The notes beneath the pieces are model-generated. The model did not search any database, was not told the DNA's origin, and saw nothing but the letters and a program-made list of their open reading frames with translations. DNA of 64,000 nt from Clostridiales bacterium. GTDB lineage: Bacteria > Bacillota > Clostridia > Christensenellales > UBA1242. Positions within the stretch are counted from its first letter, which is position 1. Every line of letters starts with the position of its first letter. The position numbers were made by a program, and so were the translations under genes. This document shows positions 1 through 39,314 of the stretch, in pieces. The stretch is taken from assembly GCA_015055515.1 (NCBI GenBank), contig SVIC01000003.1, positions 15,435 to 79,434 of the forward strand, given 5' to 3'.

Positions 1-389
1 GGATTTGAATCAGGTGTAGTATCTTTAATAACATACATATAGGCTACATAGCCTGTGCCATTGTTAGGATCTGGCAGATCAACATTATCAAATATAAATT
101 TATTGCTACTAGCAGACTGTCCAGCTCTGTGAACAATACTAGTATCTGTCAAATCAGTATTGTTAGAATCCTGTATCTTTGCAGTCAAATCTGTCCTATT
201 CTCACCATCTACTATCACGCCTTGAGCAGTGATCTCACAGTCCACCTCTTTGGCAACATATGTAACTGTCATAAAACTATCTGTACTAGTTCTTAATGCA
301 ACTAACACAATACCTATAGTAAGCCCTATTATTGCCAAAGCCATTATCACGCCGATAATAATTATCAACGATTTTTGTTTTGTTTTCAT
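1..389 (-). CDS. Hypothetical N-terminally anchored or secreted protein; only the 5' part is present because the ORF runs off the window start
   Basis: It is absent from the ORF track because the window edge truncates it. The reverse-strand ATG is at 389..387, with AGGAGA 7 nt upstream. I translated 129 codons down to position 3 without a stop. The protein starts MKTKQKSLIIIIGVIMALAIIGLTIGIVLVAL (basic N-terminus plus a hydrophobic helix). No family recognised. Confidence 0.7.
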   Translation of the reverse strand, partial: MKTKQKSLIIIIGVIMALAIIGLTIGIVLVALRTSTDSFMTVTYVAKEVDCEITAQGVIVDGENRTDLTAKIQDSNNTDLTDTSIVHRAGQSASSNKFIFDNVDLPDPNNGTGYVAYMYVIKDTTPDSN

Positions 390-458
390 TAATTTATCTC
401 CTTTGTCTTATAATATTTAACCATATGTGCCAAAACATCCACATACAATTCTAATATT

Positions 459-490
459 ATTGTATCACTACCCCCCCCCCCAGAGGTCAA
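459..490 (-). promoter_or_regulatory. Candidate sigma-A promoter of the 1..389 gene with a G11 tract inside a 20-nt spacer
   Basis: The reverse strand reads TTGACC-tct-GGGGGGGGGGG-tagTGa-TACAAT. The -35 is 485..490, the extended -10 (TGaTACAAT) ends at 459, and the spacer is 465..484. It sits between the upstream gene's terminator (520..547) and the RBS/ATG at 389. Confidence 0.55.
471..481. repeat. C11 (+ strand) / G11 (- strand) homopolymer tract
   Basis: There are eleven consecutive C residues, counted directly. By eye there is no other G/C run of comparable length in this AT-rich window. Confidence 0.95.
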
Positions 491-519
491 ACAATTTGCA
501 GGAGAAATTATAAAATAAT

Positions 520-547
520 AAAAAAAACTTGCTATATCACATAGCAA
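520..547 (-). terminator. Rho-independent terminator of the 615..1430 gene
   Basis: The - strand has stem TTGCTAT/ATAGCAA (529..535 / 541..547) with a 5-nt loop, followed by a T8 run (A-run 520..527 on the + strand). Confidence 0.6.
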
Positions 548-614
548 ATTAATTTTGATTTATCCACAATTTGATAAACTCGTCTATAACTTCAACGAAA
601 CATCAAATAAAAAA

Positions 615-1430
615 TTAGCTCACAGGACCATTAGGATCAAAACACCCACAACTCCAAGGAGAAGAGAATGTACAATTGTAATAACGATAATAGTTACCAT
701 CCGTTCCATAATAAATCTCATCACCTATTTGATAAGCATCAACATCTGTATCAAAAGAACTGTCTGGACCTTCACCTCCGCAAGTACTGCAAGGATCATA
801 TACACACCCACCTATAACATTGTGTGATGATAAATAATAACTATACTGAGCATATATATCAATATTACCATCAAGCAATTCACTAGGATTATCAATTACT
901 ATTTTTATTCTATATCCATTAGAGAAGGAAGAAAAAGTAAAATTGTTATAATCATGACAAATAACAACCATAGATAAATTGTCATATGGTAGATTACCTA
1001 TTGTTGTATCTCCCGCTGTTGTATATAATAATGTAAACGTTGAGTCTGTATGTAAATACCATCCATTAAAATAATATGTATGACCAAATAAACTTAGCAA
1101 CTCTTCTCCATCTTCTGCTACTGTAGGTATAGCTATTTGAGATATATATTGCCCTTCACTATTTTTCTCAAAAACAGCATCTATACTGCATATATCTTCA
1201 TGCCAATCAGAAAAGTCAGCGCCTGCCTCATATGCTGGCATTAACCTACCCATAAAATTGACCTTCACATCTATTGAATCGGGAATTATTGCAGAATACC
1301 CTAGGGACACACCAGAATCTAATATAATGCTAGTAGGAGAAACTAATACCACCGCCAAAAAAACCACTACACATAGTAGTGCCACAACCATCATTATTAA
1401 GATAATAGATAATTTTTTCTCTAATGACAT
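615..1430 (-). CDS. Hypothetical membrane-anchored extracytoplasmic protein with a Cys-rich C-terminus
   Basis: The ORF is 271 aa. It has an N-terminal hydrophobic anchor (LSIILIMMVVALLCVVVFLAVVLV). The C-terminal 60 aa are rich in C/G/D/Y (CVYDPCSTCGGEGPD...NCTFSSPWSCGCFDPNG). No family recognised. Confidence 0.65.
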   Translation of the reverse strand: MSLEKKLSIILIMMVVALLCVVVFLAVVLVSPTSIILDSGVSLGYSAIIPDSIDVKVNFMGRLMPAYEAGADFSDWHEDICSIDAVFEKNSEGQYISQIAIPTVAEDGEELLSLFGHTYYFNGWYLHTDSTFTLLYTTAGDTTIGNLPYDNLSMVVICHDYNNFTFSSFSNGYRIKIVIDNPSELLDGNIDIYAQYSYYLSSHNVIGGCVYDPCSTCGGEGPDSSFDTDVDAYQIGDEIYYGTDGNYYRYYNCTFSSPWSCGCFDPNGPVS

Positions 1431-1578
1431 GTGTCATCCCAATAATATAACGATAATATATTCTATATAATATACAAATATATTATATAAATTCATTTAT
1501 TTTTGGTCAAACAAATATGACTAAAAACGAGATTTATTAAAATAATATTTACTTATACCTTATTTTTCAAAAATAAAT

Positions 1579-1608
1579 TAAAAAAAGAAGGGCTATACCC
1601 AACCCTTC
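1579..1608 (-). terminator. Rho-independent terminator downstream of recA
   Basis: Stem GAAGGG/CCCTTC (1587..1592 / 1603..1608) is followed on the - strand by a T-run (A-run 1579..1586 on the + strand). Confidence 0.55.
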
Positions 1609-1615
1609 AAAATAT

Positions 1616-2635
1616 TTATTCTGACAAATCAACCTCAGTTAAGCCATTAGAAGCACTCATCTTCTCCCTAACCTTAGTCTCTATCTCTTGCAACATCTCT
1701 TCATTATCATTCAAGATAGCCTTAACATTCTCCTTACCTTGAGCAATCTTAGTACCATTATATGAATACCAACTACCACTCTTATTGATAATGTCTGCCT
1801 CTATTGCAACATCTACAATACAACCTAATTTATCTATACCCTTGCCATACATTATATCAAACTCTGCAACACGGAATGGAGGTGCCATCTTGTTCTTGAC
1901 AACCTTCACCTTCGCCCTATTACCAATGATATTAGATCCATCCTTAATAACATCAACCTTTCTAATATCTAGTCTTACACTAGCATAGAACTTCAAAGCC
2001 TTACCACCAGTGGTTGTCTCCGGATTGCCATATATTACACCTATCTTATCACGCAATTGGTTGATAAAAATTACACAAGTATTATTCTTATTAGTAACGC
2101 CAGTTAACTTTCTAAGGGCTTGTGACATAAGCCTTGCTTGAGTACCAATGAAGTTATCTCCCATCTCACCATCAATCTCTGCCTTAGGAGTAAGTGCTGC
2201 AACAGAGTCAACTATTACTACATCCATAGCACCACTACGAACTAGTGATTCTAATATATCTAATCCTTGCTCACCTGTATCAGGCTGAGACACATATAGG
2301 TCATTAATATTAACACCTAACTTTGCGGCATATTGTGGGTCTAGAGCATGCTCTGCATCAATAAACGCAGCAGTACCACCCATCTTCTGAGCTTCTGCCA
2401 AAATATGCAGAGCCAAAGTTGTCTTACCAGACGATTCTGGTCCATATATCTCTACAATTCTACCCTTTGGCACTCCACCAATTCCTAGTGCGTGATCTAA
2501 TGTAAGGCAACCAGTAGGAATAACATCTATTGCCTGAGCACCAGTATCACCCAACTTCATGATTGAGCCCTTACCAAATTGTTTCTCTATTTGCATTAGA
2601 GCAAGCTCTAACGCCTTCTTCTTAGCATCATCCAT
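1616..2635 (-). CDS. recA: Recombinase RecA
   Basis: The 339-aa protein has the canonical RecA sequence ([13 protein letters not shown]; Walker [13 protein letters not shown]; [11 protein letters not shown]). It has an AAGGAT RBS and sits in pgsA-cinA-recA synteny. Confidence 0.98.
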
Positions 2636-25476: not shown

Positions 25477-28400
25477 ATGGAGAAAAATATGATTAACACT
25501 AACATCAAGAAAACAACAGGTAAAAATATTATTGCAATATCGCTAAGTATAATACTTGCATTTGTATTATCGCACATAATATTTAGCACAAAAACTCTGG
25601 CAGAGAATAGCACCTACATGCCAGACTTTATTGTAGCAACAACCAATATAAGAGAAACAAACAACTATCAAAACAACGCCGTAGATATAATATACGAAGA
25701 GAACTCTGCGGGATCTTTCGTTATGTGGGCGAACGAGTATTATAACCTAAGAGACAATACTCTTAGCCAAGTACCTAACTACAAGCAAGTTATTAGCGTT
25801 GATGGAGATACAAATGTTGCTTCAATAAGTGACTACTACACCTATGATGCAGGAACGGGAAAATTTACTGGCTTGCTTGAACTTCCAGAGGCTAATAAGT
25901 GGTATAGATACGATGATAATGGCAAGCTAAGCCCAATAGGTGCTCGCCTATCAAAAGACAATCTTACTAGTGCCATTTCAATGGAAGATAGCAGAGTAGA
26001 TAGCAAAGATTCTGATGTTAGAAAAATAATTATAGATGGAAAAGATGTATATATACAAGTAGGAGAAGAAAACAAAATTTACTCAAAAGACTACTATTAT
26101 GGATATAATTATAAGTCTTTCAAATCAGAGTATAGTTATAAACCAATTACGCCATCTGATAGTGCGGAAATATCCTACACATATATCTCCGATCTAACAA
26201 CCGATCCTATATCAACAAGTGAGCACAAGTATACTTATATTTCAAATATATTTGAGAAGCATACAGACACAAGTGGCAAATTCGCATATTACAATAACTC
26301 TTGGATGAAGGTTGAATTATGTAATGCTGATGGCATAATCACCAATACAACTGATGACACATACGTAATATTAGAAAAAGACGGACAACTACCTAAGATA
26401 TGGGTGTCTGGATCAACATATTATTATAAAGATACAAATGGCGATAAAAAACAACTTGAGAGCCAACCCGAATTCTATACATATTCTATTCAAAACGGCT
26501 TATATTGCATATCCGGAACAGAATATCTATTACTAGAAAATGAGAATATAGATAGATTTGATGGAACTAAATTAACCCTAACTGGTAATGTCGAGCTAGA
26601 ACTAGATCAACTATATACCAGAGTATACATTAACGAACCATATCTAAAAATAGGCGCTAACACAGAAAAAACTGTAGAATTCGTAAAATTAGACAATACC
26701 GACCCTGCAAATATAAATTTCATATCTGGTAGCATATCGATTAACAAGCACTTATTCAGCATTTCCTATGACAATGCTAATATAATAAACTATAATGGTG
26801 TATGGCAAATAATAGAATATTGTCGTGCAGATGGAGGAAAATTATCCAACACCACAGAAAAAACTAATTATGTAATATTAGAAAAAGATAATAACAATAC
26901 ATCAGTATGGGGTGAATTGAACTCCAACAAGTATTATTACAAAGATGGTGCAAACACAAAAGAACGAACTACCAATGCCACTAACAATGCCCTTCCAACA
27001 TTATATGGCTATAAATTAAACAGTGGATTATATAGTCACAAAGACTACGAATATATTCCGCTAAAAGATGCCGTAATAACAAATATTAGTTACGATGAAA
27101 ACACATTAAAAGAAATAAAGGTTACAACTAATACTGGTAGAGAGCTAACAATCAACAACCTTTCAGATAACCTTTATACAAACAACTATTATTATGAGAT
27201 CTACAAAGCCGTATATGGCGAAGATAAGAACACAATCTTAGATTATGAATTATACAATTACGAATTAAAAGCAAGCGACAACACAAAAGGAAACTTCGAT
27301 AGTTATCAAAGCTTTATAAGTACATATTTTGCAGAAGACAACCTAGATGAATTATACTTCTTGGGCACAGACGGGGCTTATCACGAACTATTCAACACCG
27401 TATACGCTAATAGTGCTAAAGAAGTAATAACTTCTACCACTAGCGATATTGTACTAGACAACTACAAAGTACAAAGAGATCTATACAACTCTGATATTGC
27501 AACTACAGATAATCAAAATGTAGAGAATATATATCTTAGTTTTGGCGATATATACTACCCTAACATAAACGACAACAGCAAAAATGCATTTAATATCATT
27601 ATCACAGAATTGTCTGTTAATATGACATTGACTAATAGTTATTACAACGAGATACCGGTAATAATTAATGAGCCAATTAGACAAGAAAATATCAACTTAT
27701 CTAATGATGTAACCAAGCAAAATTGTTTCTGGTTCCAATATCTAGACCTTCAAAATCTAAGAACATATTCGGGATCAAACCTATCTGACACCAGAATAAT
27801 AGAACATTCTGCCGGAGAATACCAAATTGAAATAACATACAATACTTACAATATCGAGACAGGTATCAGTTCTACATCACAGAATTTCTCTTATTCGTTA
27901 ATTGTAGATGAGACAAGCAACAAAGACAGTTATCCTATTATAAATAATACTGAATATGTAGAAAAAGATAACAACTACCCTATATATACATATAACTTCC
28001 AAAGCATGAACAAGCCAGAGATAATGTTCGATGCTAGCGAATACTCGATGCAATATTCATATAACTACGATGAGTATAATACAGATTACAATTCTGCATT
28101 GAACATATTCAAAAGAGACACTGTTACAAAAGACACATTAGTAACATATGCTACTGCCACTGGAACTGAGAACACAGAGCAGAATATAAAATATTATCAA
28201 GAACATTCAATATTTACTTGGGTAGAAAGCGGATACATCAATAATATCGAAGTAAACAGAACACATTCTAGAACAAAAATACTAGCAAATGCCACTATTA
28301 TAGAAAAACCAACAAATGGTAAAATCCAAATAGTTGGCGCCACCAATGTTGATATTGACAAGGTTGCGATATTAGAATATACATATTATATCGATTCCCC

Positions 28401-31400
28401 TTCAAATGCATTCGTGAACGACAATTATTCTTCGCTGCAATTCGATAAGAAAATTGTCTCAATTGTTGGATACAGCACAGCAGAGAATACTTACTACATT
28501 TGGCACTATATAACAGATATTGAAAAATCAAAAGATGATTCTTTTGTAAGTTATAACAAAGTAATTAATGAATATATAACAAAGATATCCAAGCCAGTAA
28601 ATTATAGGTCATACGACAATATGTACAAGTTCTATAACTTAGATAAAACGCCTGCTACAGATTATGCAAAATTAGAAAAAGGTTTTGCTAGCAGAAAATA
28701 CGACTACTATTTCGATTATGAGCAGTTGGATTTCGATTATATCATAACTGATGAATTTTCCAACTTAGGTGAATACGTATTCGAAATGGGCTATGTAACA
28801 AGCACAAAATACTCACCTAGCAAAACACCTTATAACACATACAATCTGCACAATATCTCTAAAGACGTTATAGCAATTGAACCAAACTTCGATCCAAAAG
28901 GACTTGTTAATCTGCAACAAGGCACACTAAATGGAGGATATAATATATCTATATTTGGTGTAAAATCATATTTCAATAAGTACATGTCTGCGACATCAAC
29001 TACTGTACAGACCGAATTAATGCTAGAGTCAGAAAATATTTATAGTGACATGACCGCCACTATTAATTCAATTAATAACACTAATAAAATTGAACAAATG
29101 CCACAGGCAGGAACAACAATAAATAATGCGGGAACATCTATAGGAAAAGTACCTAATACCAACCAAGTACCAATTTACTTCGAATACTTATGTTCTTATG
29201 CATACACTGGAAACATTTCGAATAGCAGAATTTACAGATACCCTAGCTTCGTATACAACGATGATAATACATGCACAATCAAAAATACTAATAATTATAT
29301 CACCAGCTATTTTGATAAGAACTCAAGACCTGAAGATGATGGATATTATGAGATTATAATAGAGTATTCATATAAAAATAACGATACTAATTACGAGTCC
29401 GACAAGCAATATCAAGTATTTGCATTCGTTATAGACAACTCCTCTCCAGAGGTGGCATACGATACACTAAAAGAAACAATTGACAGCAAAGAATATAAAT
29501 ACTTAGATTGGCAAAGCATGGCATCCAACAATATAACAAACTCTATTGTTAGAGCTAATTGGAATACGCCTAATTACTTCCAATACGATATAATTCCAAC
29601 CATTACAAAGGAAAATTACTCTGGCGTATCAAGCATCTATGGATCAAGTGATAGCACTTCAACAATTAATGCTATAAGCGGAACTAATGAAGAAGTATTC
29701 ATTCATATTAATGAGACAGAGAAGATATCTCTTACAGGCAATGCAGATATTGTAAAAAATAATGGAGTAATACAATATACCGATAAAGCTGGACTAATTG
29801 CAGAAAAGTATTATATAACAAAGTATGACAATGCACATTTGACCAAGGTACCTGTATTCAAGCTAATAGTAGATCAGAACGCAAATCTTGACACAATACT
29901 AGAACAAAGCAAGAAAGAGTATTATCAAACAAGAATATTGAATAATACACTATATCCATCAGATATGTACAACGCTAAGATTGTGGATATTATTAACACT
30001 ATTATCCAGAGTGGAACATCAATTAGTTTTGAATTTATAGGATACAAATGGCAATTCATGATATACCCTACTTCGACACATCTAGATGAAATTAATAAAA
30101 TACAATCTAGTGGTAGCATATGGGGAAGCGGAAACTACTTATTAAAACTAACATATGGTAGCAGTGCAACATCTAACATAACTAGTAGGTTTGTTATAGA
30201 TACACTACCTATATCAAATGTCGTAGCTAGAAGTGTTATGTTATATAACAGCGGAAATATAATATCCAAAGGTTTTAATGGAAATTGCAACTTTGCAAGC
30301 GGATCGAACAACTTAATAAATGAGCCATTTACATTAATATACGATTCTAAAACAAGTGGAGCTGATATCACTACTTATTATAGAAAGATTTCATTCAAAT
30401 CCACTACAATAGATAAAGATTATGACAGACTGTATCTAGCAGACACCACCGTAGGTGTACTTACAGATATAGAGTTAACTGCAAGCGAAGATGCTCGATG
30501 GAAAAAATATACATATAATTATAACTACGGAGAGGCAGGATCAACAGTTCCTACAGGAAACGAATTCAATCCTGATTCTACATCACTATATGTATTCTAC
30601 TTAGAAGATCGTGCGGGCAACAAAGCTAATTATTATGTATTGTATGACAACTCTACACCTAAATACAGTGTGGAGTTAAGTGAAAAAGATAAAACATCAA
30701 ACAACTTCAATCTATACAATATTATCACAGACAATACAACACTATTCTGGGGAAATTATAAGGCAATTGAAGTATCTGGAAGCCTAGATATAGGTTATAT
30801 TATTAATAGAGCAAATCATATCAACTATCAACCTACAGCAATTGAAATGGCACTGAAAGATATCGTTGCAAAAAGCACTAATAACACTTATCTAGGAGCA
30901 AGCTACAAAACTTTTAGAAAAGATAATAACAAGTGGGAAGAAATAAGCAATGCAGACTATTCATCGGGAGATAAATGCTTTATATTAATACCTTTATCTA
31001 ACACAACATTCAACTATTCTCAAACAAACGCCGATGATAAGACAGAGAAGCAATTCATATTCAATATGCTTACTGGCAAAATTAACCAAACCATACTATC
31101 CCCTACAGCATTAGATTTAGCAATTGCAAATGGCTTAGTGGCAAACAACGCAACAGATACTGAAAAAGAGGCAGCAAGAAACCTAATAAAACGTAGCCCT
31201 CAAGGCACATATGGATTCTATGGCGAGATTCAATATGATTACGTAATAGAAGATATTCTAGGAAATAGCGATGGTGGCTTCTTATGGATGAACAACGACT
31301 TGACAGTAGCAATGGCATGGATGACTAATGCAAAAACTGACAAAGAATTGAGCAACAATGATGATCTGGGCGTATTTGCAGCAACAGATCTATCTAGCGC

Positions 31401-34400
31401 ATACGCAACTAGCCAAGTATACTTCACTTATTTAACTAGTATAGATAGTTCTATACCTACTGCAGAATTCGATTATAAATATTATCCATTTGAAGATTTA
31501 AGTAAAACCGGATTCTATAACAATTATAAAATAAAAAATATTTCATACAATAGTTCGAAAAGCTGTTATGAGATAATATTTGTAGATGAAAAGGACAACC
31601 AAATTACACATAACTACAGTGCTTTGTCTACTAACAACTATAATGCTGATGGAGATGCAGTAAATGAACCAAATAGTACTTATCCATTTACTATTTCCCC
31701 TACAACAGCATCTAACAATGGTTGGAACAAAATAACAGCAACTTCTAATTACAATGTTGCAGGAGACCCAAATAGAAAGGTGTCCAATCTAATTAACGAT
31801 ATATCTGATACATCTATTAAATATTCTGGAGCTGGTCTATATGTATTTAGAAGAGTATATGTAGATTATGTAGATGCTACACAATATAGCAATGGCATAA
31901 CAATTGTCAATAAAGCAAAAGCTGAAGAACTGGATAAAGATAGTGCTGTAAGATACTATGTATATTATATTGACAGAAATTCTATAATAGATGTAACTAA
32001 CATGATAGGCTCTGATATAACACTAACATATGGTAACTATATTCATGCTGTAACAAACGACAATGAGAATAACTTAAGCATTGATAATAACTATGCCAAT
32101 GTATATGGCTATGACAGCATATCAATAGATGCTGTACAGCAATCCAGCACATCAAATAGTGTTCAGACTTATGTATCTAGCGATAGTACCAACAAGATAT
32201 ATATCTCTCTAGATATGCCTATGGATAAATACAATCAGCCTAGAGCAGTAGCATTTGCAAAAGAAACTGATTTTGCATTGTCTATGACCGAAGCTGATAA
32301 AGCAAATACTGAATCTATGCTACGTAAGTTCTACAACCTATCTGAGAATCAGAATATTACTGAAGCACAAATAAATGAATTTATTAACAACTTCCTTGGC
32401 AAATACATGTTCGATAATTACAACGGTTTTGCAAACGGAACATATAATAAAAATTTCCAATTGAACGTAACCTTAAAAAATGGAAACAATGCGATCATGG
32501 AAAATAATATTATCACAGAGAATAATTCCATATACTTCAAACAGTATTCTGCAACAACATTACAGACCTCAACTGTTTCATCTATTGATAGACAAAACTT
32601 TACTAATTATTTAAGAAATGATATTACTTCAATCATCCTTAATGATCCTTCCGGCGATGGTTACAACTTTGCTATATCAGACAGCTCATTATTTACAAGA
32701 AATAACGTTATAATATCTGAAGCAAACTCATTGAATATTAACAACATTAATATCGCACCTATGAAGCCTACAGGATCTGTAATAGGTAAAAACCCAAATA
32801 CTAAATATCTAACTGATACAGAGTCTGAGAACTATGTACAAAACTTGTTCCAAAATGATCAGTTAAAGAGTATGAAATATTATGTTGCTTCGGCAGATAG
32901 CATATACCCTAATTCTAACAACAGTACCTTAATATTCTTAATAGATAATGATATATTAACTAACCTTACAGCAACAACAAACCCTTACAATATTGTAATT
33001 AATAAATTTAGTGAAAATGGTACTAAAAGCACAATATTTACTAGTAGCCTAACATACGAGATAGTTAATGGCGAAGTTGTTCCAAAATTCACTGCCAATA
33101 ATGCAAATGCCTTCATTAGTAATGCAACGATAGATAATAAGGCTACAAAATGGGCAATAGTAGTATTTGACAAGACTGCAAAGAATGAACAATATAAGAA
33201 TATATTATCAAATGCTGATGACAATGCAACATACCAGATTACTATCCAGCACTATGGTAAAAAAGAAGATTATATAGACAAAGATGTCAAACAGAACATA
33301 GCATTCAGCGATACTCAAGAGATAACAATTGATCACATAAAACCAATAATTAACCAAATAAAATTAATGGAGCAAGACAAATTTATCTCAAAGAATTTTG
33401 CAAAAATAAAATCATCAATTGAAGCTCAGAATAACAATCTTGTATATAATGATATACAATCATACTACAACGACTTAATTAGTAGAATTTCTAGTGGTAC
33501 AATCACCAAGATTGGAGCACAAAAATATTTGAAAAATGTATATGATATATACCTTGAATGCTACAAGAACTTAATGGGTAAAGAAGATAATTTCTTAAAA
33601 ACATTTACCGATCAATTCGGAGAAAAAGTAAATTACTGGAATAACTATTATTTCACAGTAGATGATAACTTCGAATTCATAAGTGGACTTCCTAGCCTTA
33701 ACAATGAAGATGGTAACGGAATGGGACTGGATTGTTATAACAATATTTATTTTAGAAAAATATCAGATCTGACTAAATACAAATATTCAATAACAACAGA
33801 TGACTTTACATCAACTACTAGTTCAGATATTACTGGTCACAGCATATTCTATGATAACATTGCAGAGACCTATGACAGCAGCAATAACCCAACTATAGAA
33901 TCTGACACAACCTTCTATAAAATAAGCCACACAAACAACAAAAATTATAAATTATTTGGTGAATCTATCAAAGATCCTGGTTATTATGAAATAATAGAAC
34001 GTGATGAGGCTGGAAACTATAGCGTATACCTAGTACACTATAATAATAACGGTAACGAATATAAATACACTTATTCTAAGTTATTTAATGACAAAACAGA
34101 AGATGAAATCAACCTAAGCTCAACAAAAGTTAATGAGATTCTAGGTACTGGGCTGGCATTGTCTAATGCGAATACGGATAATGTCGCCGATATGTTCCGT
34201 GCAGAAATAGCCTATACATTCACGACTATAAAAGAAGATGGCACTGTTGATAGAGTATACAACAATACATCCTCACCTATTTATATTTATTCTACAATGA
34301 TGAACAACGCTGTAGATATATATTATGATCGTAAGAATGACAATATGATAGACATAGACTCTGATTTATTGCAGTCTATCACTGGAATTGTAGCACTTGA

Positions 34401-37242
34401 AAACACAAGTTTAGGTAATGAGATAATCAACAAAGCATTATCAAGAATAAAAGAAATACTGATGTATATATCTAATACTTACACTGATATAGCTCTTGAC
34501 TTTGAATACAGTATTAATATATATGACAAGGTATATGGTAATTATGTTATATCTTACAAATGCCCAGGAAAGCAGTTAGAGTTGGATATAAACAAAGGCG
34601 ATTATTCATTCAATGTTACAATACCTAACAACGAAGTAGGAAGAGCTACCAAGATTGTAAGCTTTAAGGCACGATACTCCAATAGTTCTGCCCCTATACA
34701 GCGTGACAAAAATGGCAACGAGATTCCTGACACTTCTAATAACAAACTTCCATTAAATTCTACTACTTATACATTTAACTATGCAGATGGATCTCAAACT
34801 CAAGGATCTGCTATCATTATTGAGACTATAGACAATTTCGGCAGAAACAAAATATATTATATTACTAACAAAAATGATAGGTTATATTATACCGAAATGA
34901 ACACTATAAAACACTATAATGATACTTATACAGATGATGAGATCAAGATAGTATATAATAGTGATCTATATAACGCAGTAATCATAGAGCAAGTAGATGA
35001 ATCTAATCAACTAACTATTACAACAAGATTAAATGCAAATAATAGTTATCCTATAGCAAATAATGATTATTTGAGATACGATGTCACAGATCTACCTACT
35101 TGGACTAGAAAAGATGACAAAGGAAATATAATATATACAGTATCTAGCGACAAATTATTAAATGAGACTGGTTATATTACTCTAACAATTAAGCAAAACA
35201 TAGATAAAAAATCGAAATTTATTATTTTATTCTTGGACAAGAGCACAATAACAAGTGAAACAACCATAAATGAGTTATACAAAAGTTATGTATCTTTCGT
35301 TAGCAAGCCTGAAGGAATATTATATAACGATGATACGAAGGTAACAATGTATACTTATCTTCCAGAAATCAAATTAATTAATAATAGCAATAGAGTAATT
35401 ACTACTTCTAAAACTATAAAAGATCAAAAAGAACTACTACTATTCATAGAACAATTAAAATACAGATTAGAATATAGTCAAGAGATATTGTTTAATCCAA
35501 GAATATCTATTGCAAAGAACAATATTCAATATGCTGTCATTCCTGAAGAATTAAGTGAAAACGTAAGCCTTGGCAATGGTACATACAGGCTTGTAATATC
35601 TAATGACCTAGGATATTATAGTGAAATAAATTTCAAGATAGAAATCCAAGAAAATATAGCAGACTATGCATTATATATTAATAATAATTTGATGCAAAAA
35701 TCTACATATATTAATACAGATGACGGTAAAATAGTGTATCACTATTATACTACCCTATTGGATGCAACAACTAAGCCGAAGATTAATATAATAACAAATT
35801 CTAACAACAACATTGCTTGCACAAAAATAGAAGATGCTGTAGTAGAAAACAGCAATGATTTGTATGAAACATATAAGGTACACAAGAAAGATAATCCTGA
35901 TGTAATAATAGAATATTTCACTATATATTATTTAGAGAAAGACAAATACAACTTTGTCGATGATAACGGTGGACAAATTGTAAAGATTAATAATAAGAAA
36001 TCATTCAATACCGCACAAGATATAGCATCTGTAAGCAGTTCTAAGAATGACAACAAACTATATATAATCTTTGCCAATACCATAAACGGAAACAACGATC
36101 ATACACAAGGCAATACTATATCACTAACCTATTATTACAATAATGCTTCGACTAAGACAGAAGAAATAAAAATAAATAAGTTAAACAAGTTCATAGAAGA
36201 TGGCAAAACTTATTATTACTATGAAATATCTGAAACTGGTTTACATAAATTTGTAGTAAGTGACCTTGCTGGACAAAGATTAAAATCTGGCAACAGAGAT
36301 TACTTCAATATAACTTTGATTAATAGCATAATATATGAAATCAAAGTTGATGAAGATAAATATATTCAAAATCTACAAAATTACATAACTAACAACGAAG
36401 TTGTTATAAGATTGCTAGATCAAGTAGGCAACACTAACCTATATGATATTATATATGATCAAATAAGAATAACTAGAAATGGTGAATTGTTAACAGACAT
36501 AAAACAAACAACTAAAAATGTATATACTTTCACTACTCCTGGATCATATGAAATACAAGTAAGTGCTAGTGATTCAAGCAATCCTAAGCCTATAACTCAT
36601 TCTATATACTTTACTATAGTAAATCCGAACATAGCATACAGTTCGTATACAATATCATCTGCAAAAGGCTACACAATTAAATCGGTAACAAAGAGATTAA
36701 ATAACACAGAGAATTCCAAGCCTACACCTATAAACGCTTTCAACAATTCTAATTCGTTACTAATTAGTTGTGCCGAGCATGGTGCTGGATATTATACCAT
36801 AACGGTTACAAAATATCTAGAAAGCATTAAGTCTGAAAAAGAATTTTCATTCAATGTATGGCTAAATGATAGAACTGAATCTAGTATAATTATAGCATCT
36901 ATTCCATTCGGAACAGAGACAACAGATACTATTACTATACGATATAACGCATCAAATATATATAATAATATAGGTGAATCTTTCATTAAGATAAATGGAA
37001 ATATTATAGACACTATTACAAAAGATAGCACCTCTGAAACTTCTACCTATAATATAACTGAAAAAGGTGTATATTGGGTAACAATAGAATCTGCTAATGG
37101 TCAAGTTATAGCTAGCTATAAATTAACCAAGAATGAACCACTAAATGCAACTGCCCAGATAATAATAATTGTTGTTGTTGTAGCAGTAATTGCTCTAGTA
37201 GTTATATTCATAATCTTGAGAAAGAAGACTAAGTTCAGATAA
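25477..37242 (+). CDS. Giant (3,921 aa) N/Y/T/I/D-rich cell-surface protein with an N-terminal signal peptide and a C-terminal TM anchor; function unknown
   Basis: A single uninterrupted 11,766-nt ORF. The second ATG at 25489 has the better RBS (GGAG 6 nt upstream). The signal peptide is IIAISLSIILAFVLSHIIFSTKTLA/EN. The C-terminus is AQIIIIVVVVAVIALVVIFIIL-RKKTKFR. Recurrent beta-sandwich-like module ends are present (G-x-Y-x-I/V ... D-x-AGN). I recognised no enzyme, LPXTG, SLH or YD/RHS motif. Confidence 0.85.
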   Translation: MEKNMINTNIKKTTGKNIIAISLSIILAFVLSHIIFSTKTLAENSTYMPDFIVATTNIRETNNYQNNAVDIIYEENSAGSFVMWANEYYNLRDNTLSQVPNYKQVISVDGDTNVASISDYYTYDAGTGKFTGLLELPEANKWYRYDDNGKLSPIGARLSKDNLTSAISMEDSRVDSKDSDVRKIIIDGKDVYIQVGEENKIYSKDYYYGYNYKSFKSEYSYKPITPSDSAEISYTYISDLTTDPISTSEHKYTYISNIFEKHTDTSGKFAYYNNSWMKVELCNADGIITNTTDDTYVILEKDGQLPKIWVSGSTYYYKDTNGDKKQLESQPEFYTYSIQNGLYCISGTEYLLLENENIDRFDGTKLTLTGNVELELDQLYTRVYINEPYLKIGANTEKTVEFVKLDNTDPANINFISGSISINKHLFSISYDNANIINYNGVWQIIEYCRADGGKLSNTTEKTNYVILEKDNNNTSVWGELNSNKYYYKDGANTKERTTNATNNALPTLYGYKLNSGLYSHKDYEYIPLKDAVITNISYDENTLKEIKVTTNTGRELTINNLSDNLYTNNYYYEIYKAVYGEDKNTILDYELYNYELKASDNTKGNFDSYQSFISTYFAEDNLDELYFLGTDGAYHELFNTVYANSAKEVITSTTSDIVLDNYKVQRDLYNSDIATTDNQNVENIYLSFGDIYYPNINDNSKNAFNIIITELSVNMTLTNSYYNEIPVIINEPIRQENINLSNDVTKQNCFWFQYLDLQNLRTYSGSNLSDTRIIEHSAGEYQIEITYNTYNIETGISSTSQNFSYSLIVDETSNKDSYPIINNTEYVEKDNNYPIYTYNFQSMNKPEIMFDASEYSMQYSYNYDEYNTDYNSALNIFKRDTVTKDTLVTYATATGTENTEQNIKYYQEHSIFTWVESGYINNIEVNRTHSRTKILANATIIEKPTNGKIQIVGATNVDIDKVAILEYTYYIDSPSNAFVNDNYSSLQFDKKIVSIVGYSTAENTYYIWHYITDIEKSKDDSFVSYNKVINEYITKISKPVNYRSYDNMYKFYNLDKTPATDYAKLEKGFASRKYDYYFDYEQLDFDYIITDEFSNLGEYVFEMGYVTSTKYSPSKTPYNTYNLHNISKDVIAIEPNFDPKGLVNLQQGTLNGGYNISIFGVKSYFNKYMSATSTTVQTELMLESENIYSDMTATINSINNTNKIEQMPQAGTTINNAGTSIGKVPNTNQVPIYFEYLCSYAYTGNISNSRIYRYPSFVYNDDNTCTIKNTNNYITSYFDKNSRPEDDGYYEIIIEYSYKNNDTNYESDKQYQVFAFVIDNSSPEVAYDTLKETIDSKEYKYLDWQSMASNNITNSIVRANWNTPNYFQYDIIPTITKENYSGVSSIYGSSDSTSTINAISGTNEEVFIHINETEKISLTGNADIVKNNGVIQYTDKAGLIAEKYYITKYDNAHLTKVPVFKLIVDQNANLDTILEQSKKEYYQTRILNNTLYPSDMYNAKIVDIINTIIQSGTSISFEFIGYKWQFMIYPTSTHLDEINKIQSSGSIWGSGNYLLKLTYGSSATSNITSRFVIDTLPISNVVARSVMLYNSGNIISKGFNGNCNFASGSNNLINEPFTLIYDSKTSGADITTYYRKISFKSTTIDKDYDRLYLADTTVGVLTDIELTASEDARWKKYTYNYNYGEAGSTVPTGNEFNPDSTSLYVFYLEDRAGNKANYYVLYDNSTPKYSVELSEKDKTSNNFNLYNIITDNTTLFWGNYKAIEVSGSLDIGYIINRANHINYQPTAIEMALKDIVAKSTNNTYLGASYKTFRKDNNKWEEISNADYSSGDKCFILIPLSNTTFNYSQTNADDKTEKQFIFNMLTGKINQTILSPTALDLAIANGLVANNATDTEKEAARNLIKRSPQGTYGFYGEIQYDYVIEDILGNSDGGFLWMNNDLTVAMAWMTNAKTDKELSNNDDLGVFAATDLSSAYATSQVYFTYLTSIDSSIPTAEFDYKYYPFEDLSKTGFYNNYKIKNISYNSSKSCYEIIFVDEKDNQITHNYSALSTNNYNADGDAVNEPNSTYPFTISPTTASNNGWNKITATSNYNVAGDPNRKVSNLINDISDTSIKYSGAGLYVFRRVYVDYVDATQYSNGITIVNKAKAEELDKDSAVRYYVYYIDRNSIIDVTNMIGSDITLTYGNYIHAVTNDNENNLSIDNNYANVYGYDSISIDAVQQSSTSNSVQTYVSSDSTNKIYISLDMPMDKYNQPRAVAFAKETDFALSMTEADKANTESMLRKFYNLSENQNITEAQINEFINNFLGKYMFDNYNGFANGTYNKNFQLNVTLKNGNNAIMENNIITENNSIYFKQYSATTLQTSTVSSIDRQNFTNYLRNDITSIILNDPSGDGYNFAISDSSLFTRNNVIISEANSLNINNINIAPMKPTGSVIGKNPNTKYLTDTESENYVQNLFQNDQLKSMKYYVASADSIYPNSNNSTLIFLIDNDILTNLTATTNPYNIVINKFSENGTKSTIFTSSLTYEIVNGEVVPKFTANNANAFISNATIDNKATKWAIVVFDKTAKNEQYKNILSNADDNATYQITIQHYGKKEDYIDKDVKQNIAFSDTQEITIDHIKPIINQIKLMEQDKFISKNFAKIKSSIEAQNNNLVYNDIQSYYNDLISRISSGTITKIGAQKYLKNVYDIYLECYKNLMGKEDNFLKTFTDQFGEKVNYWNNYYFTVDDNFEFISGLPSLNNEDGNGMGLDCYNNIYFRKISDLTKYKYSITTDDFTSTTSSDITGHSIFYDNIAETYDSSNNPTIESDTTFYKISHTNNKNYKLFGESIKDPGYYEIIERDEAGNYSVYLVHYNNNGNEYKYTYSKLFNDKTEDEINLSSTKVNEILGTGLALSNANTDNVADMFRAEIAYTFTTIKEDGTVDRVYNNTSSPIYIYSTMMNNAVDIYYDRKNDNMIDIDSDLLQSITGIVALENTSLGNEIINKALSRIKEILMYISNTYTDIALDFEYSINIYDKVYGNYVISYKCPGKQLELDINKGDYSFNVTIPNNEVGRATKIVSFKARYSNSSAPIQRDKNGNEIPDTSNNKLPLNSTTYTFNYADGSQTQGSAIIIETIDNFGRNKIYYITNKNDRLYYTEMNTIKHYNDTYTDDEIKIVYNSDLYNAVIIEQVDESNQLTITTRLNANNSYPIANNDYLRYDVTDLPTWTRKDDKGNIIYTVSSDKLLNETGYITLTIKQNIDKKSKFIILFLDKSTITSETTINELYKSYVSFVSKPEGILYNDDTKVTMYTYLPEIKLINNSNRVITTSKTIKDQKELLLFIEQLKYRLEYSQEILFNPRISIAKNNIQYAVIPEELSENVSLGNGTYRLVISNDLGYYSEINFKIEIQENIADYALYINNNLMQKSTYINTDDGKIVYHYYTTLLDATTKPKINIITNSNNNIACTKIEDAVVENSNDLYETYKVHKKDNPDVIIEYFTIYYLEKDKYNFVDDNGGQIVKINNKKSFNTAQDIASVSSSKNDNKLYIIFANTINGNNDHTQGNTISLTYYYNNASTKTEEIKINKLNKFIEDGKTYYYYEISETGLHKFVVSDLAGQRLKSGNRDYFNITLINSIIYEIKVDEDKYIQNLQNYITNNEVVIRLLDQVGNTNLYDIIYDQIRITRNGELLTDIKQTTKNVYTFTTPGSYEIQVSASDSSNPKPITHSIYFTIVNPNIAYSSYTISSAKGYTIKSVTKRLNNTENSKPTPINAFNNSNSLLISCAEHGAGYYTITVTKYLESIKSEKEFSFNVWLNDRTESSIIIASIPFGTETTDTITIRYNASNIYNNIGESFIKINGNIIDTITKDSTSETSTYNITEKGVYWVTIESANGQVIASYKLTKNEPLNATAQIIIIVVVVAVIALVVIFIILRKKTKFR

Positions 37243-37249
37243 TAAAGAC

Positions 37250-37288
37250 AAAAAAAAAGTATCATTAATATTAATGATACTTTTTTTT
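37250..37288. terminator. Bidirectional terminator shared by the giant ORF and the convergent lipoprotein gene
   Basis: The sequence A9-GTATCATTAA-TA-TTAATGATAC-T8 has a perfect 10-bp palindromic stem (37259..37280) with an A-run on one side and a T-run on the other. The T-run overlaps the lipoprotein stop codon. Confidence 0.8.
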
Positions 37289-39314
37289 AAGTCCAAATAG
37301 ACAATGTTACCAAATCTATAATTTGTGGAGTTAAAATATTTGCCTTTGCAGGATCATATATGTCTAGCGAATCTTCACCGAAATACGCCAAATCAACCTG
37401 CAAGAAGTTATCACCACCATTGAATACGAATGTAAACTGCCCATTCTCATTGTAAGACACTGAATATAAAGATTTGTCACTAAAAGTACTAGCAATTGTG
37501 GCTGTAATCAATAAATCTTCTCCATCTGCAGAATGGAAGTAATCAGAACTTGGTGTATTATTATCATCAAATACCTTTACTCCGTTATAATCGCTGAATT
37601 TCGCCCCAGACATAGACTGACCAACTGAATAACTTGCTAAATCATTAGCGTTGCTATAAACATAATCCAAGTTAAGTGCATACTTGTCATAGAAAGACTC
37701 TGAACTTGTTCCCATATTCATACTTGCGGGTTCATTATCTACATATCCACTGTGCACAACCTCACCTTCTGCCTTGATAGTGAATGAAGGAAGTAAGATA
37801 AATGCATTTTCTTCTGCTTCTTTTGAAGCATTGAAGGACATATTTACCGACATAATATCAAATCTATAATCAATGTGTTGGGTATAATCTTCGCCCTTAT
37901 CCTCGTAATATTCTTCTAAGTCTTCCAGATAGTCTTTCTTAATAGACTCACTAAGTTTTGGCAAGAAAACAATCTGCTTTAATTTGATATCATCTAATAT
38001 AGGCGTATACTTATCACCATTCAATCCCGAAGAAGCAGTATCAAATCCAGACATACCGCCAGACTCTTCTTTGTCCTCTGTAAACAGCTCGCTACATCTC
38101 TTGATCTCGATATTAGTACGAGGCATAATTGTATATGTCATAATCTTACTATCATCTGCAAATGAATCAAAAGTAGTGTCTGTTGTATATATACCAGCGG
38201 TCGTAATATTTGCCATTCGCTCTACCAATATATCTACTACATAATTGTAACCCTTATAATAATGAATATTAGTGTTCTGAGGAAACATATCCACCTCATT
38301 AACAGCAGATATATCCACTGCTGAGAAAGGTACATTCTGTCTAATAGATTCGTCGTTTGCATACGCTCTACCTATTACAACATTCTTCACATAATTAGCT
38401 ATGTTTATTAAATCATTCTGTGAAAATCCTAAATATTCTATATTCTCTATACACTCTTCATACGGAATATCTGATACATTGCCTATGCTATATGACTGGC
38501 TACATACAACATTTGCAATCCCATCTCTGATGGCCTCTGAAGTTGTTTGCCCTTGAACATTCATATCCCACGCATAAGATGAATTCAAGTCATTAGTAAA
38601 TCTTCCCGTTGGGTTCTCACTATCTTCATCCTTCTCATAGTTATATCCACCAAGAATGGCTTGGTTGAAATAAAATTGTCCAGCATTAACCTCATCTATC
38701 CCTAACCCAGCAACTGCACTAAGAGAACTAGCTAATAAGTCTTTTGTATTCGTGTAATCATTAGTATTAAGTATATAACCACTAGATGCATTGCCTTCGC
38801 TAAGAATTGTAGCATTGTTAACCCCCAAGAGATCATACTTGCCCCACAATGATCCAAGTTCGCTATTTATAGATAACAGATTTACTACAGCTGTACTACT
38901 AGGTACCGCCGTATCATCACCATATATAACATTGAGAGCGTACAATAAATGTGATGTAAATGTCTCGAATTGTCTATGCAACAGATCCTTAAATGTCTTG
39001 CTTTCTTCAGTGGCACTATCATAAAAATATCCAGCATGCCCAGCATCATACATAATAAGTACACCACTAAAGAAATCATCTTCGCTAACAGATGTAGGCT
39101 CTATAGGACAAGTGGTACTACTGCTAGACCCACTACCCGAGCCTCCTGCATTGCCACCACTACCAGACCCACCAGAAGAAGAACCACCGCCCGAGCCCCC
39201 ACCAGACCCATTAGATGATGGCAAACAACCAGTGGCAGAAAAACAACAACTAATAATTAGTAGTAGAATTAATATAATATTAAGAATTTTCTTTATTTTG
39301 ATACTTTTTCCCAT
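37287..39314 (-). CDS. Lipoprotein (675 aa) with a Gly/Ser-rich tether; function unknown
   Basis: The signal peptide has lipobox-like LIISC / SATGC. A roughly 40-aa G/S linker follows (GSGGGSGGGSSSGGSGSGGNAGGSGSGSSSS), then a D/N/Y/S-rich globular part. No family recognised. Confidence 0.75.
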   Translation of the reverse strand: MGKSIKIKKILNIILILLLIISCCFSATGCLPSSNGSGGGSGGGSSSGGSGSGGNAGGSGSGSSSSTTCPIEPTSVSEDDFFSGVLIMYDAGHAGYFYDSATEESKTFKDLLHRQFETFTSHLLYALNVIYGDDTAVPSSTAVVNLLSINSELGSLWGKYDLLGVNNATILSEGNASSGYILNTNDYTNTKDLLASSLSAVAGLGIDEVNAGQFYFNQAILGGYNYEKDEDSENPTGRFTNDLNSSYAWDMNVQGQTTSEAIRDGIANVVCSQSYSIGNVSDIPYEECIENIEYLGFSQNDLINIANYVKNVVIGRAYANDESIRQNVPFSAVDISAVNEVDMFPQNTNIHYYKGYNYVVDILVERMANITTAGIYTTDTTFDSFADDSKIMTYTIMPRTNIEIKRCSELFTEDKEESGGMSGFDTASSGLNGDKYTPILDDIKLKQIVFLPKLSESIKKDYLEDLEEYYEDKGEDYTQHIDYRFDIMSVNMSFNASKEAEENAFILLPSFTIKAEGEVVHSGYVDNEPASMNMGTSSESFYDKYALNLDYVYSNANDLASYSVGQSMSGAKFSDYNGVKVFDDNNTPSSDYFHSADGEDLLITATIASTFSDKSLYSVSYNENGQFTFVFNGGDNFLQVDLAYFGEDSLDIYDPAKANILTPQIIDLVTLSIWT

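Follow-up and report, generated by a model that had tools for sequence, protein, structure and literature searches.

The window analyzed in this study, a stretch of 64,000 nucleotides from a Clostridiales bacterium, begins with two adjacent genes for membrane proteins on the - strand. The upstream gene (615..1430, -) encodes a 271-aa protein, deposited at NCBI as MBE5735099.1 (locus tag E7361_01460), and has its own consensus promoter, TTGACC-17-TATAAT (1510..1482). Its product is anchored, its C-terminus is Cys-rich, and it contains a 'YYFNGWY' motif, presumably reminiscent of Listeria-Bacteroides repeats and undetected by Pfam; among 5.8 billion proteins, this protein had no homolog besides itself. 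The possibility that the two adjacent membrane proteins are mutual paralogs was rejected after a negative comparison. The upstream gene ends in an intrinsic-terminator-like structure (513..556, -), recognized from its fold and inverted repeat, which consists of the hairpin UUUGCUAUGUG-aua-... followed by U8. This hairpin had a folding energy of -11 kcal/mol (z = -3.7), with none of 200 shuffled sequences being as stable, and was absent from the terminator scan list because it contains only two G-C pairs. Judging from its sequence, the putative terminator insulates the downstream gene transcriptionally.

On the - strand of window positions 1..1500, the promoter region of the downstream gene reads ...caaattgt TTGACC tct GGGGGGGGGGG tagtga TACAAT aatatt.... 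The -35 hexamer TTGACC (490..485, -) matches the consensus at five of six positions and lies within the TTGTTTGAC context common to the promoters of paralogs. The extended -10 element TGaTACAAT (467..459, -) comprises TG at 467..466 and TACAAT at 464..459, and has the form TGgTACAAT in the contig of an ortholog (L086). The 20-nt spacer between them (484..465, -) can be read directly as tct (484..482), a run of 11 G residues (481..471; C11 on the + strand) and tagtga (470..465), which puts a simple repeat, a putative slipped-strand hypermutable element, between -35 and -10 (TTGACC-20-TGaTACAAT). Spacer length equals the number of G residues plus 9, giving 17 nt for G8, 18 nt for G9, and 20 nt for G11. 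From the geometry of the promoter, transcription is predicted to start at position 452, 7 nt past the -10 element. An RBS, AAGGAG (403..398, -), stands 8 nt ahead of the ATG at position 389, from which the 5' part of the regulated gene (1..389, -; 129 codons) runs off the window start. The original prediction had described this anatomy (-35, 20-nt spacer, G11, extended -10, terminator, RBS, and ATG), and each element was found where it had been placed.

At the sequence level, the G11 promoter was the sole promoter candidate in the 225-nt gap between the terminator and the RBS, and a -35/-10 scan of this gap found no promoter with a spacer of 16-18 nt. A perfect TATAAT at 512..507 was rejected as an alternative promoter, as its -35 matches at only three of six positions and it overlaps the U tract of the terminator. 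Reiterative transcription at the G run was also discarded, since the run would lie at about -14 to -24 from the predicted start and not at the start itself. A hairpin formed by a 20-nt inverted repeat around the tract was not significant (z = -0.1). Directly past the predicted start, the 5'-UTR contains a hairpin or imperfect inverted repeat (412..458, -; AAUAUU..UUGUAUGUGG...CACAUAUGG..AAUAUU) with a folding energy of -11.3 kcal/mol (z = -2.3). The ortholog has retained this repeat, and the UTRs of paralogs contain a recurrent CCACATA/CACATA motif. The element could be an operator, or a 5' stem-loop or stabilizing stem of the mRNA. An Rfam search returned only a sub-threshold match to the S15 leader, which was rejected.

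Apart from the G11/C11 tract, the 64-kb window contains no G or C run longer than five; C runs of one to five residues numbered 8261, 1800, 269, 38, and 12, followed by none until 11. A scan of the window for mono- to heptanucleotide repeats found none of note besides G11. Among recA homologs, the best match (78% aa identity) came from a Clostridia MAG of buffalo reticulum (L002), and other matches (64-75%) came from Ca. Scatosoma and from uncultured Clostridia of the gut; no representative of the species itself was found. The surroundings of these recA homologs, 370 kb of low-GC Clostridia DNA, contained neither G or C runs of at least 8 residues nor TA repeats of at least 7 units. The original prediction had judged an 11-nt G/C run very unlikely to be neutral in a genome this AT-rich; the tract is far beyond chance and a gross compositional outlier, and it falls within the hypermutable simple repeats (G/C runs of about 8 or more). 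For a random 11-mer, the chance of being bracketed by a -35 match of at least 5/6 and by TGn plus a -10 match of at least 5/6 was about 4e-4 (this strand, with 36 placements allowed). In L002, the nearest relative by recA, both small membrane-protein genes downstream of recA are absent, so a synteny comparison was impossible.

A census of -35/-10 pairs on the gene-rich - strand yielded 18 pairs at spacer 17, compared with 4-11 at other lengths. Among the nine TG-extended matches in this census, five had spacer 17, and the G11 promoter was the only one at spacer 20. The recA promoter is TTGACA-17-TGtTATAAT, and TGn extended -10 elements are common in the host genome. These sequences indicate that promoters of the host are of the canonical sigma-A type, with an optimum of 17 nt, the same value that had been assumed beforehand for the locus. 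Because host promoters peak at spacer 17, the 20-nt spacer is off-optimum here, and a G8 version of the promoter would rank among the window's best.

The visible 129 aa of the regulated protein start with MKTKQKS and a 25-residue hydrophobic segment that may serve as an anchor or signal. A contig from another sample (L085) extends the protein to 177 aa, with the reading frame uninterrupted over at least 177 codons. A word-indexed protein search with the 129-aa fragment gave no match, and the family was found only by a full HMMER scan of 1.84 billion representatives, in which 54 clusters across genomes shared the N-terminal 125 residues (family consensus MKTKQK..IIGLTIGLVLVAQQA..SMTVSYxAxNVD). 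A scan of viral contigs with the family alignment gave no match. At least 10 family members carry E7361_* locus tags and are paralogs in the source genome, some of them in tandem. The target protein had been proposed to be signal-anchored, in agreement with the predicted anchor found here in one of at least 10 paralogs. The paralogs share a conserved N-terminal anchor, a beta-sandwich, and GLUG-like repeats and have variable ectodomains, as in vlp-like families with conserved 5' ends and divergent ectodomains. In these respects, the family matches the cargo that promoter-spacing switches commonly control.

The ortholog P0003 (GCA_054275055.1) is intact, has 547 aa, and is 87% identical over the fragment. 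In its AlphaFold model (mean pLDDT 72), residues 2-31 form a TM helix and residues 39-220 a beta-sandwich, and the C-terminal region resembles a beta-helix. Foldseek searches with this model returned weak similarities of the pilin/adhesin type only, and Pfam searches on the family gave weak GLUG-motif matches, mostly sub-threshold, with one above threshold in P0059. On the basis of the TM helix, the beta-sandwich, and the GLUG-like region, the product is predicted to be exposed on the surface. The full-length product of the regulated gene was not found in protein collections, an absence that is probably explained by truncation of the gene at a contig or window end.

In comparison with the ortholog, the ectodomain showed 11 synonymous and 4 non-synonymous codon changes, and an 84-nt promoter-proximal/UTR segment was identical in L086 at 82 of 84 positions. 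This synonymous excess and the similarity of the UTR indicate that the locus is maintained and not decaying, and the pattern of substitutions argues that the regulated gene is under purifying selection. Positions 2155-2685 of L085 and 85-615 of L086 were ~97% identical except for a signal-anchor patch (nt ~100-240, 67-85% identity), in which 26 of 44 codons differed. This mosaic suggests recombination swapping 5' anchor segments among family members. Tandem family genes were observed on two contigs, where P0007 is followed after 54 nt by an MKTKQK gene (L087 1773-1949) and P0004 is followed after 16 nt by P0059 (L088 1-2309); some tandem members are probably co-transcribed without a promoter of their own.

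Simple repeats were also identified in the promoters of other family members. The promoter of the paralog P0009 (E7361_02545) reads TTTGACA-tct-(TA)10-AT, with a perfect TTGACA and TATAAT 19 nt apart, and occurs on JGI contigs from two samples (L095 2861-2900, and the same sequence in L096). The promoter of the homolog P0008, located in another genomic context in MAG GCA_964434145.1 (L099 34-70), reads TTGACA-aca-(TA)9-AT and matches the consensus TTGACA-17-TATAAT at 12 of 12 positions. Homology between these two promoters, and between their UTRs, is clear, and in both promoters the end of the repeat itself forms TATAAT, giving a spacer of 2n-1, so that one TA unit shifts the promoter between optimal and non-optimal spacing. 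A length difference, (TA)10 versus (TA)9, is seen between genomes at this analogous paralog promoter, which from its sequence looks like a second, hif-like candidate for a phase-variable promoter in the family. In the three family promoters with G11, (TA)10, or (TA)9, the repeat starts 3 nt past the -35, and 'tct' precedes it in two. The -35 contexts of the paralog promoters were caTTTGACA (L095), tgTTTGACA (L089), and agTTGACA (L099). In terms of sequence, a simple repeat directly past the -35 recurs in this surface-protein family, in three readable promoters but not in each of its members, as no repeat was found in the promoters of P0013 and P0015. For the gene after P0013, the promoter is TTGACA-17-GATAAT and its spacer contains only an A7. 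Two further contigs (L097 and L098) begin ~15 nt past the TA repeat, and the contig of paralog P0007 (L087) begins at 'TAGTAC' following the repeat position. The sequence upstream of P0013 was wholly different in one sample (L092 1-492 compared with L089, L090, and L091), consisting of a - strand gene and its terminator, and the junction falls within the long palindrome AGAGATTAATATGCAATTACTTGCATTATAAATCTCT. The difference reflects either a structural variant, with the upstream paralog P0020 present or absent, or an assembly chimera.

The tract could be followed into another assembly by means of a 90%-cluster variant of the neighboring 271-aa protein, which led to the JGI contig Ga0257077_10204139 (L085). 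This contig, from a different sample, spans the tract, where its G11 and flanks agree exactly with those of the window; over window positions 2543..1 (2.5 kb), the two sequences are 99.88% identical and differ by 3 SNPs. Because an independent assembly with 3 SNPs reproduces the G11 and its flanks, the tract is real and not an assembly artefact of the source record; the exact count of 11 could be off by one. Another contig (L001, JGI 3300032167) breaks inside the tract, ending ...TTGACCTCTGGGG, and the ortholog contig L086 (MAG GCA_054275055.1) begins GGGTAGTGGTACAAT... at the tract and continues with the same 5'-UTR. Both breaks come after only 3-4 G residues, and contigs from either side carry G residues at the junction. 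Poly-G is a known source of sequencing trouble, and Illumina sequencing fails at G tracts ('G's end') (PMC9187656). A stop after 3-4 G residues fits a loss of read quality at poly-G, and we set the breaks aside as evidence of length heterogeneity; they more likely reflect the sequencing problem. The anatomy and the logic of the phase-variable switch put forward in the original prediction have held, but variation in tract length was not seen, with G11 in both spanning assemblies (the window and L085; n = 2, from apparently related samples). Metagenome contigs scanned with the exact flanks and a variable number of G residues gave 0 matches, protein-guided scans of genome and metagenome contigs with the 129-aa fragment gave no match, and exact look-ups of recA, cinA, and pgsA returned only short JGI contigs not reaching the tract.

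We consider it plausible, with moderate confidence, that the locus is a slipped-strand promoter-spacing switch on a surface-protein gene, currently in a weak or OFF setting. The G11 tract would act as a simple-sequence contingency element in the spacer of a sigma-A-type promoter, and slipped-strand mispairing in replication would add or remove G residues and thereby shift the distance from TTGACC to TGaTACAAT. With G8 or G9, a spacer of 17-18 nt would make a strong promoter, and with G11 the -35 would be misplaced by 3 bp, or about 100 degrees of twist, leaving weak transcription dependent on the extended -10. The host's own preference for 17-nt spacers supports this expectation. The population would hold cells with different levels of the protein, with low or OFF as the sequenced majority state. 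At least one other family member in the same genome would be wired alike via (TA)n, and the surface coat could be varied locus by locus.

The present tract is three deletions away from the 17-nt optimum and two from 18 nt, and by our comparison further from ON than most described loci. As a point against a switch, some length drift might be expected if all OFF lengths were neutral. An extended -10 can work without a -35. The element at this locus may give basal transcription independent of the -35, and spacing may matter less than assumed. The weak or OFF setting that had been forecast is still what the promoter predicts, but a strict ON/OFF behavior is not, owing to possible basal transcription from the extended -10; graded volume control, as by a rheostat, and ON/OFF switching are equally likely.

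A real but inert tract is conceivable, in which the promoter runs on the extended -10 alone, TTGACC is unused, and the G run is a tolerated accident. Such an accident would agree with the many TGn extended -10 elements of this genome and their ability to bypass a -35, with the identical G11 in two strain variants, and with the paralog promoters that have no repeat. We regard it as rather unlikely, because no second such run occurs in more than 430 kb of comparable DNA and yet the G11 lies 3 nt past a 5/6 -35, homologous promoters have (TA)n at the same spot, and the TTGTTTGAC context is conserved among paralogs. The (TA)n repeats at the same place also argue for any slippery repeat and not for a G motif, and this speaks against a fixed structural or protein-binding element selected at a length of 11, such as a binding site for a regulator or a poly(dG) segment of rigid, A-like geometry. 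For such an element, a G11 tract would be a poor choice due to its intrinsic instability, and the inverted repeat around it is no better than random expectation (z = -0.1). To our knowledge, no protein needs a pure G11 site. Even with the length of 11 in both spanning assemblies and an adjacent 5'-UTR inverted repeat that could be an operator, a fixed element seems improbable to us.

Loss of the promoter would fit the non-optimal 20-nt spacer and the missing full-length product in protein collections; here, the G run would have grown within a decaying promoter, with a silent gene becoming a pseudogene. The ORF open for at least 177 codons, the intact 547-aa ortholog, the 11:4 excess of synonymous changes, and the conservation of the UTR and RBS (82/84) make this very unlikely. 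Least credible of all is a sequencing or assembly artefact, arising from the poly-G no-signal of two-color Illumina chemistry or from a chimeric join. Two assemblies do break exactly at the tract, where Illumina is known to have trouble (PMC9187656), but G11 and both flanks recur in the independent assembly, which comes from another sample and has 3 SNPs at other positions, contigs from either side carry G residues at the junction, and the flanks form one coherent promoter.

The promoter-spacing switch that we favor has counterparts among known promoter repeats, namely the poly-G/C of porA and opc, the (TA)n of hifA/B, the poly-C of Bordetella pertussis fim, and the poly-A of Mycoplasma hyorhinis vlp (PMC3899988). 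The same review confirms, for porA and vlp, the earlier statement that phase variation by homopolymers in promoter spacers is established elsewhere (PMC3899988). As in Neisseria meningitidis porA and opc, the -35 and -10 of a surface-protein gene are here separated by a spacer with a G/C run, and in porA the gain or loss of one nucleotide alters spacing and transcript level (PMC3899988, citing van der Ende 1995). Unlike porA, which encodes an outer-membrane porin of a Gram-negative pathogen, the G11 promoter belongs to an uncultured low-GC Clostridia commensal and has a TG-extended -10; its state is 3 nt over the optimum, and both variation and an effect on expression are predicted here. The likeness to Haemophilus influenzae hifA/hifB concerns the paralog promoters and not the G11 locus, as P0009 and P0008 have (TA)9-10 in the spacer with one unit equal to 2 bp (17 to 19 nt) (PMC3899988). 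Two divergent genes share the bidirectional hif promoter, whereas the promoters of P0009 and P0008 are unidirectional and their last repeat units form TATAAT.

The vlp genes of M. hyorhinis resemble the present family in belonging to a low-GC lineage and in forming a multigene surface family with conserved 5' regions, and each gene is switched ON or OFF independently by a homopolymer in its own promoter (PMC3899988, citing Yogev 1991). They differ in encoding lipoproteins with internal coding repeats and in using poly-A, in contrast to the non-lipoprotein anchor, the beta-sandwich and GLUG-like ectodomains, and the G or TA repeats in only some members found here. In the gut commensal Bifidobacterium breve, G10-G12 tracts likewise control surface appendage genes, the sortase pili (PMC9187656), but the tracts characterized in this high-GC actinobacterium lie within genes and switch by frameshift. 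The B. breve study also mentions further G tracts in promoter spacers, as well as Illumina artefacts and mis-annotated G-tract lengths (PMC9187656). Within the class Clostridia, surface and signaling functions are phase variable in Clostridioides difficile (cwpV, flgB, cmrRST, and pdcB/C), but all of these loci operate by site-specific DNA inversion and not by simple-sequence repeats, and the documented phase variation within Clostridia is DNA inversion (PMC11868660). Repeat-driven phase variation has been described almost exclusively in pathogens, systems at multiple loci mostly so, and the review asks whether this reflects biology or sampling bias (PMC11868660).

The G11 locus is probably a case of a known mechanism in an unusual host, a slippage-driven expression switch in an uncultured gut Clostridia. 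If true, poly-G and TA-repeat promoter switching would be extended to a new ecological and phylogenetic setting, and the locus is concrete and testable on existing metagenomic reads. Such tracts break assemblies, and surface-protein genes are missed or truncated in MAGs as a result. More tentatively, and with clear doubts on our part, the family may form a multi-locus simple-repeat phasome, in which at least 10 anchored GLUG-type proteins are governed by poly-G or (TA)n at one fixed promoter position and their 5' anchors are shuffled by recombination, a combinatorial surface variation similar to vlp but in a non-pathogenic Firmicute of the herbivore gut, a setting with documented switching by inversion only.

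Additionally, the window contains a 3921-aa ORF (25477-37242, +) on the strand opposite to nearly all of its neighbors. Neither this ORF (at E <= 1e-5) nor the adjacent 675-aa ORF (37287-39314, -) had a Pfam match, and the 3921-aa ORF lies within a 14-kb stretch of altered GC and AT skew.
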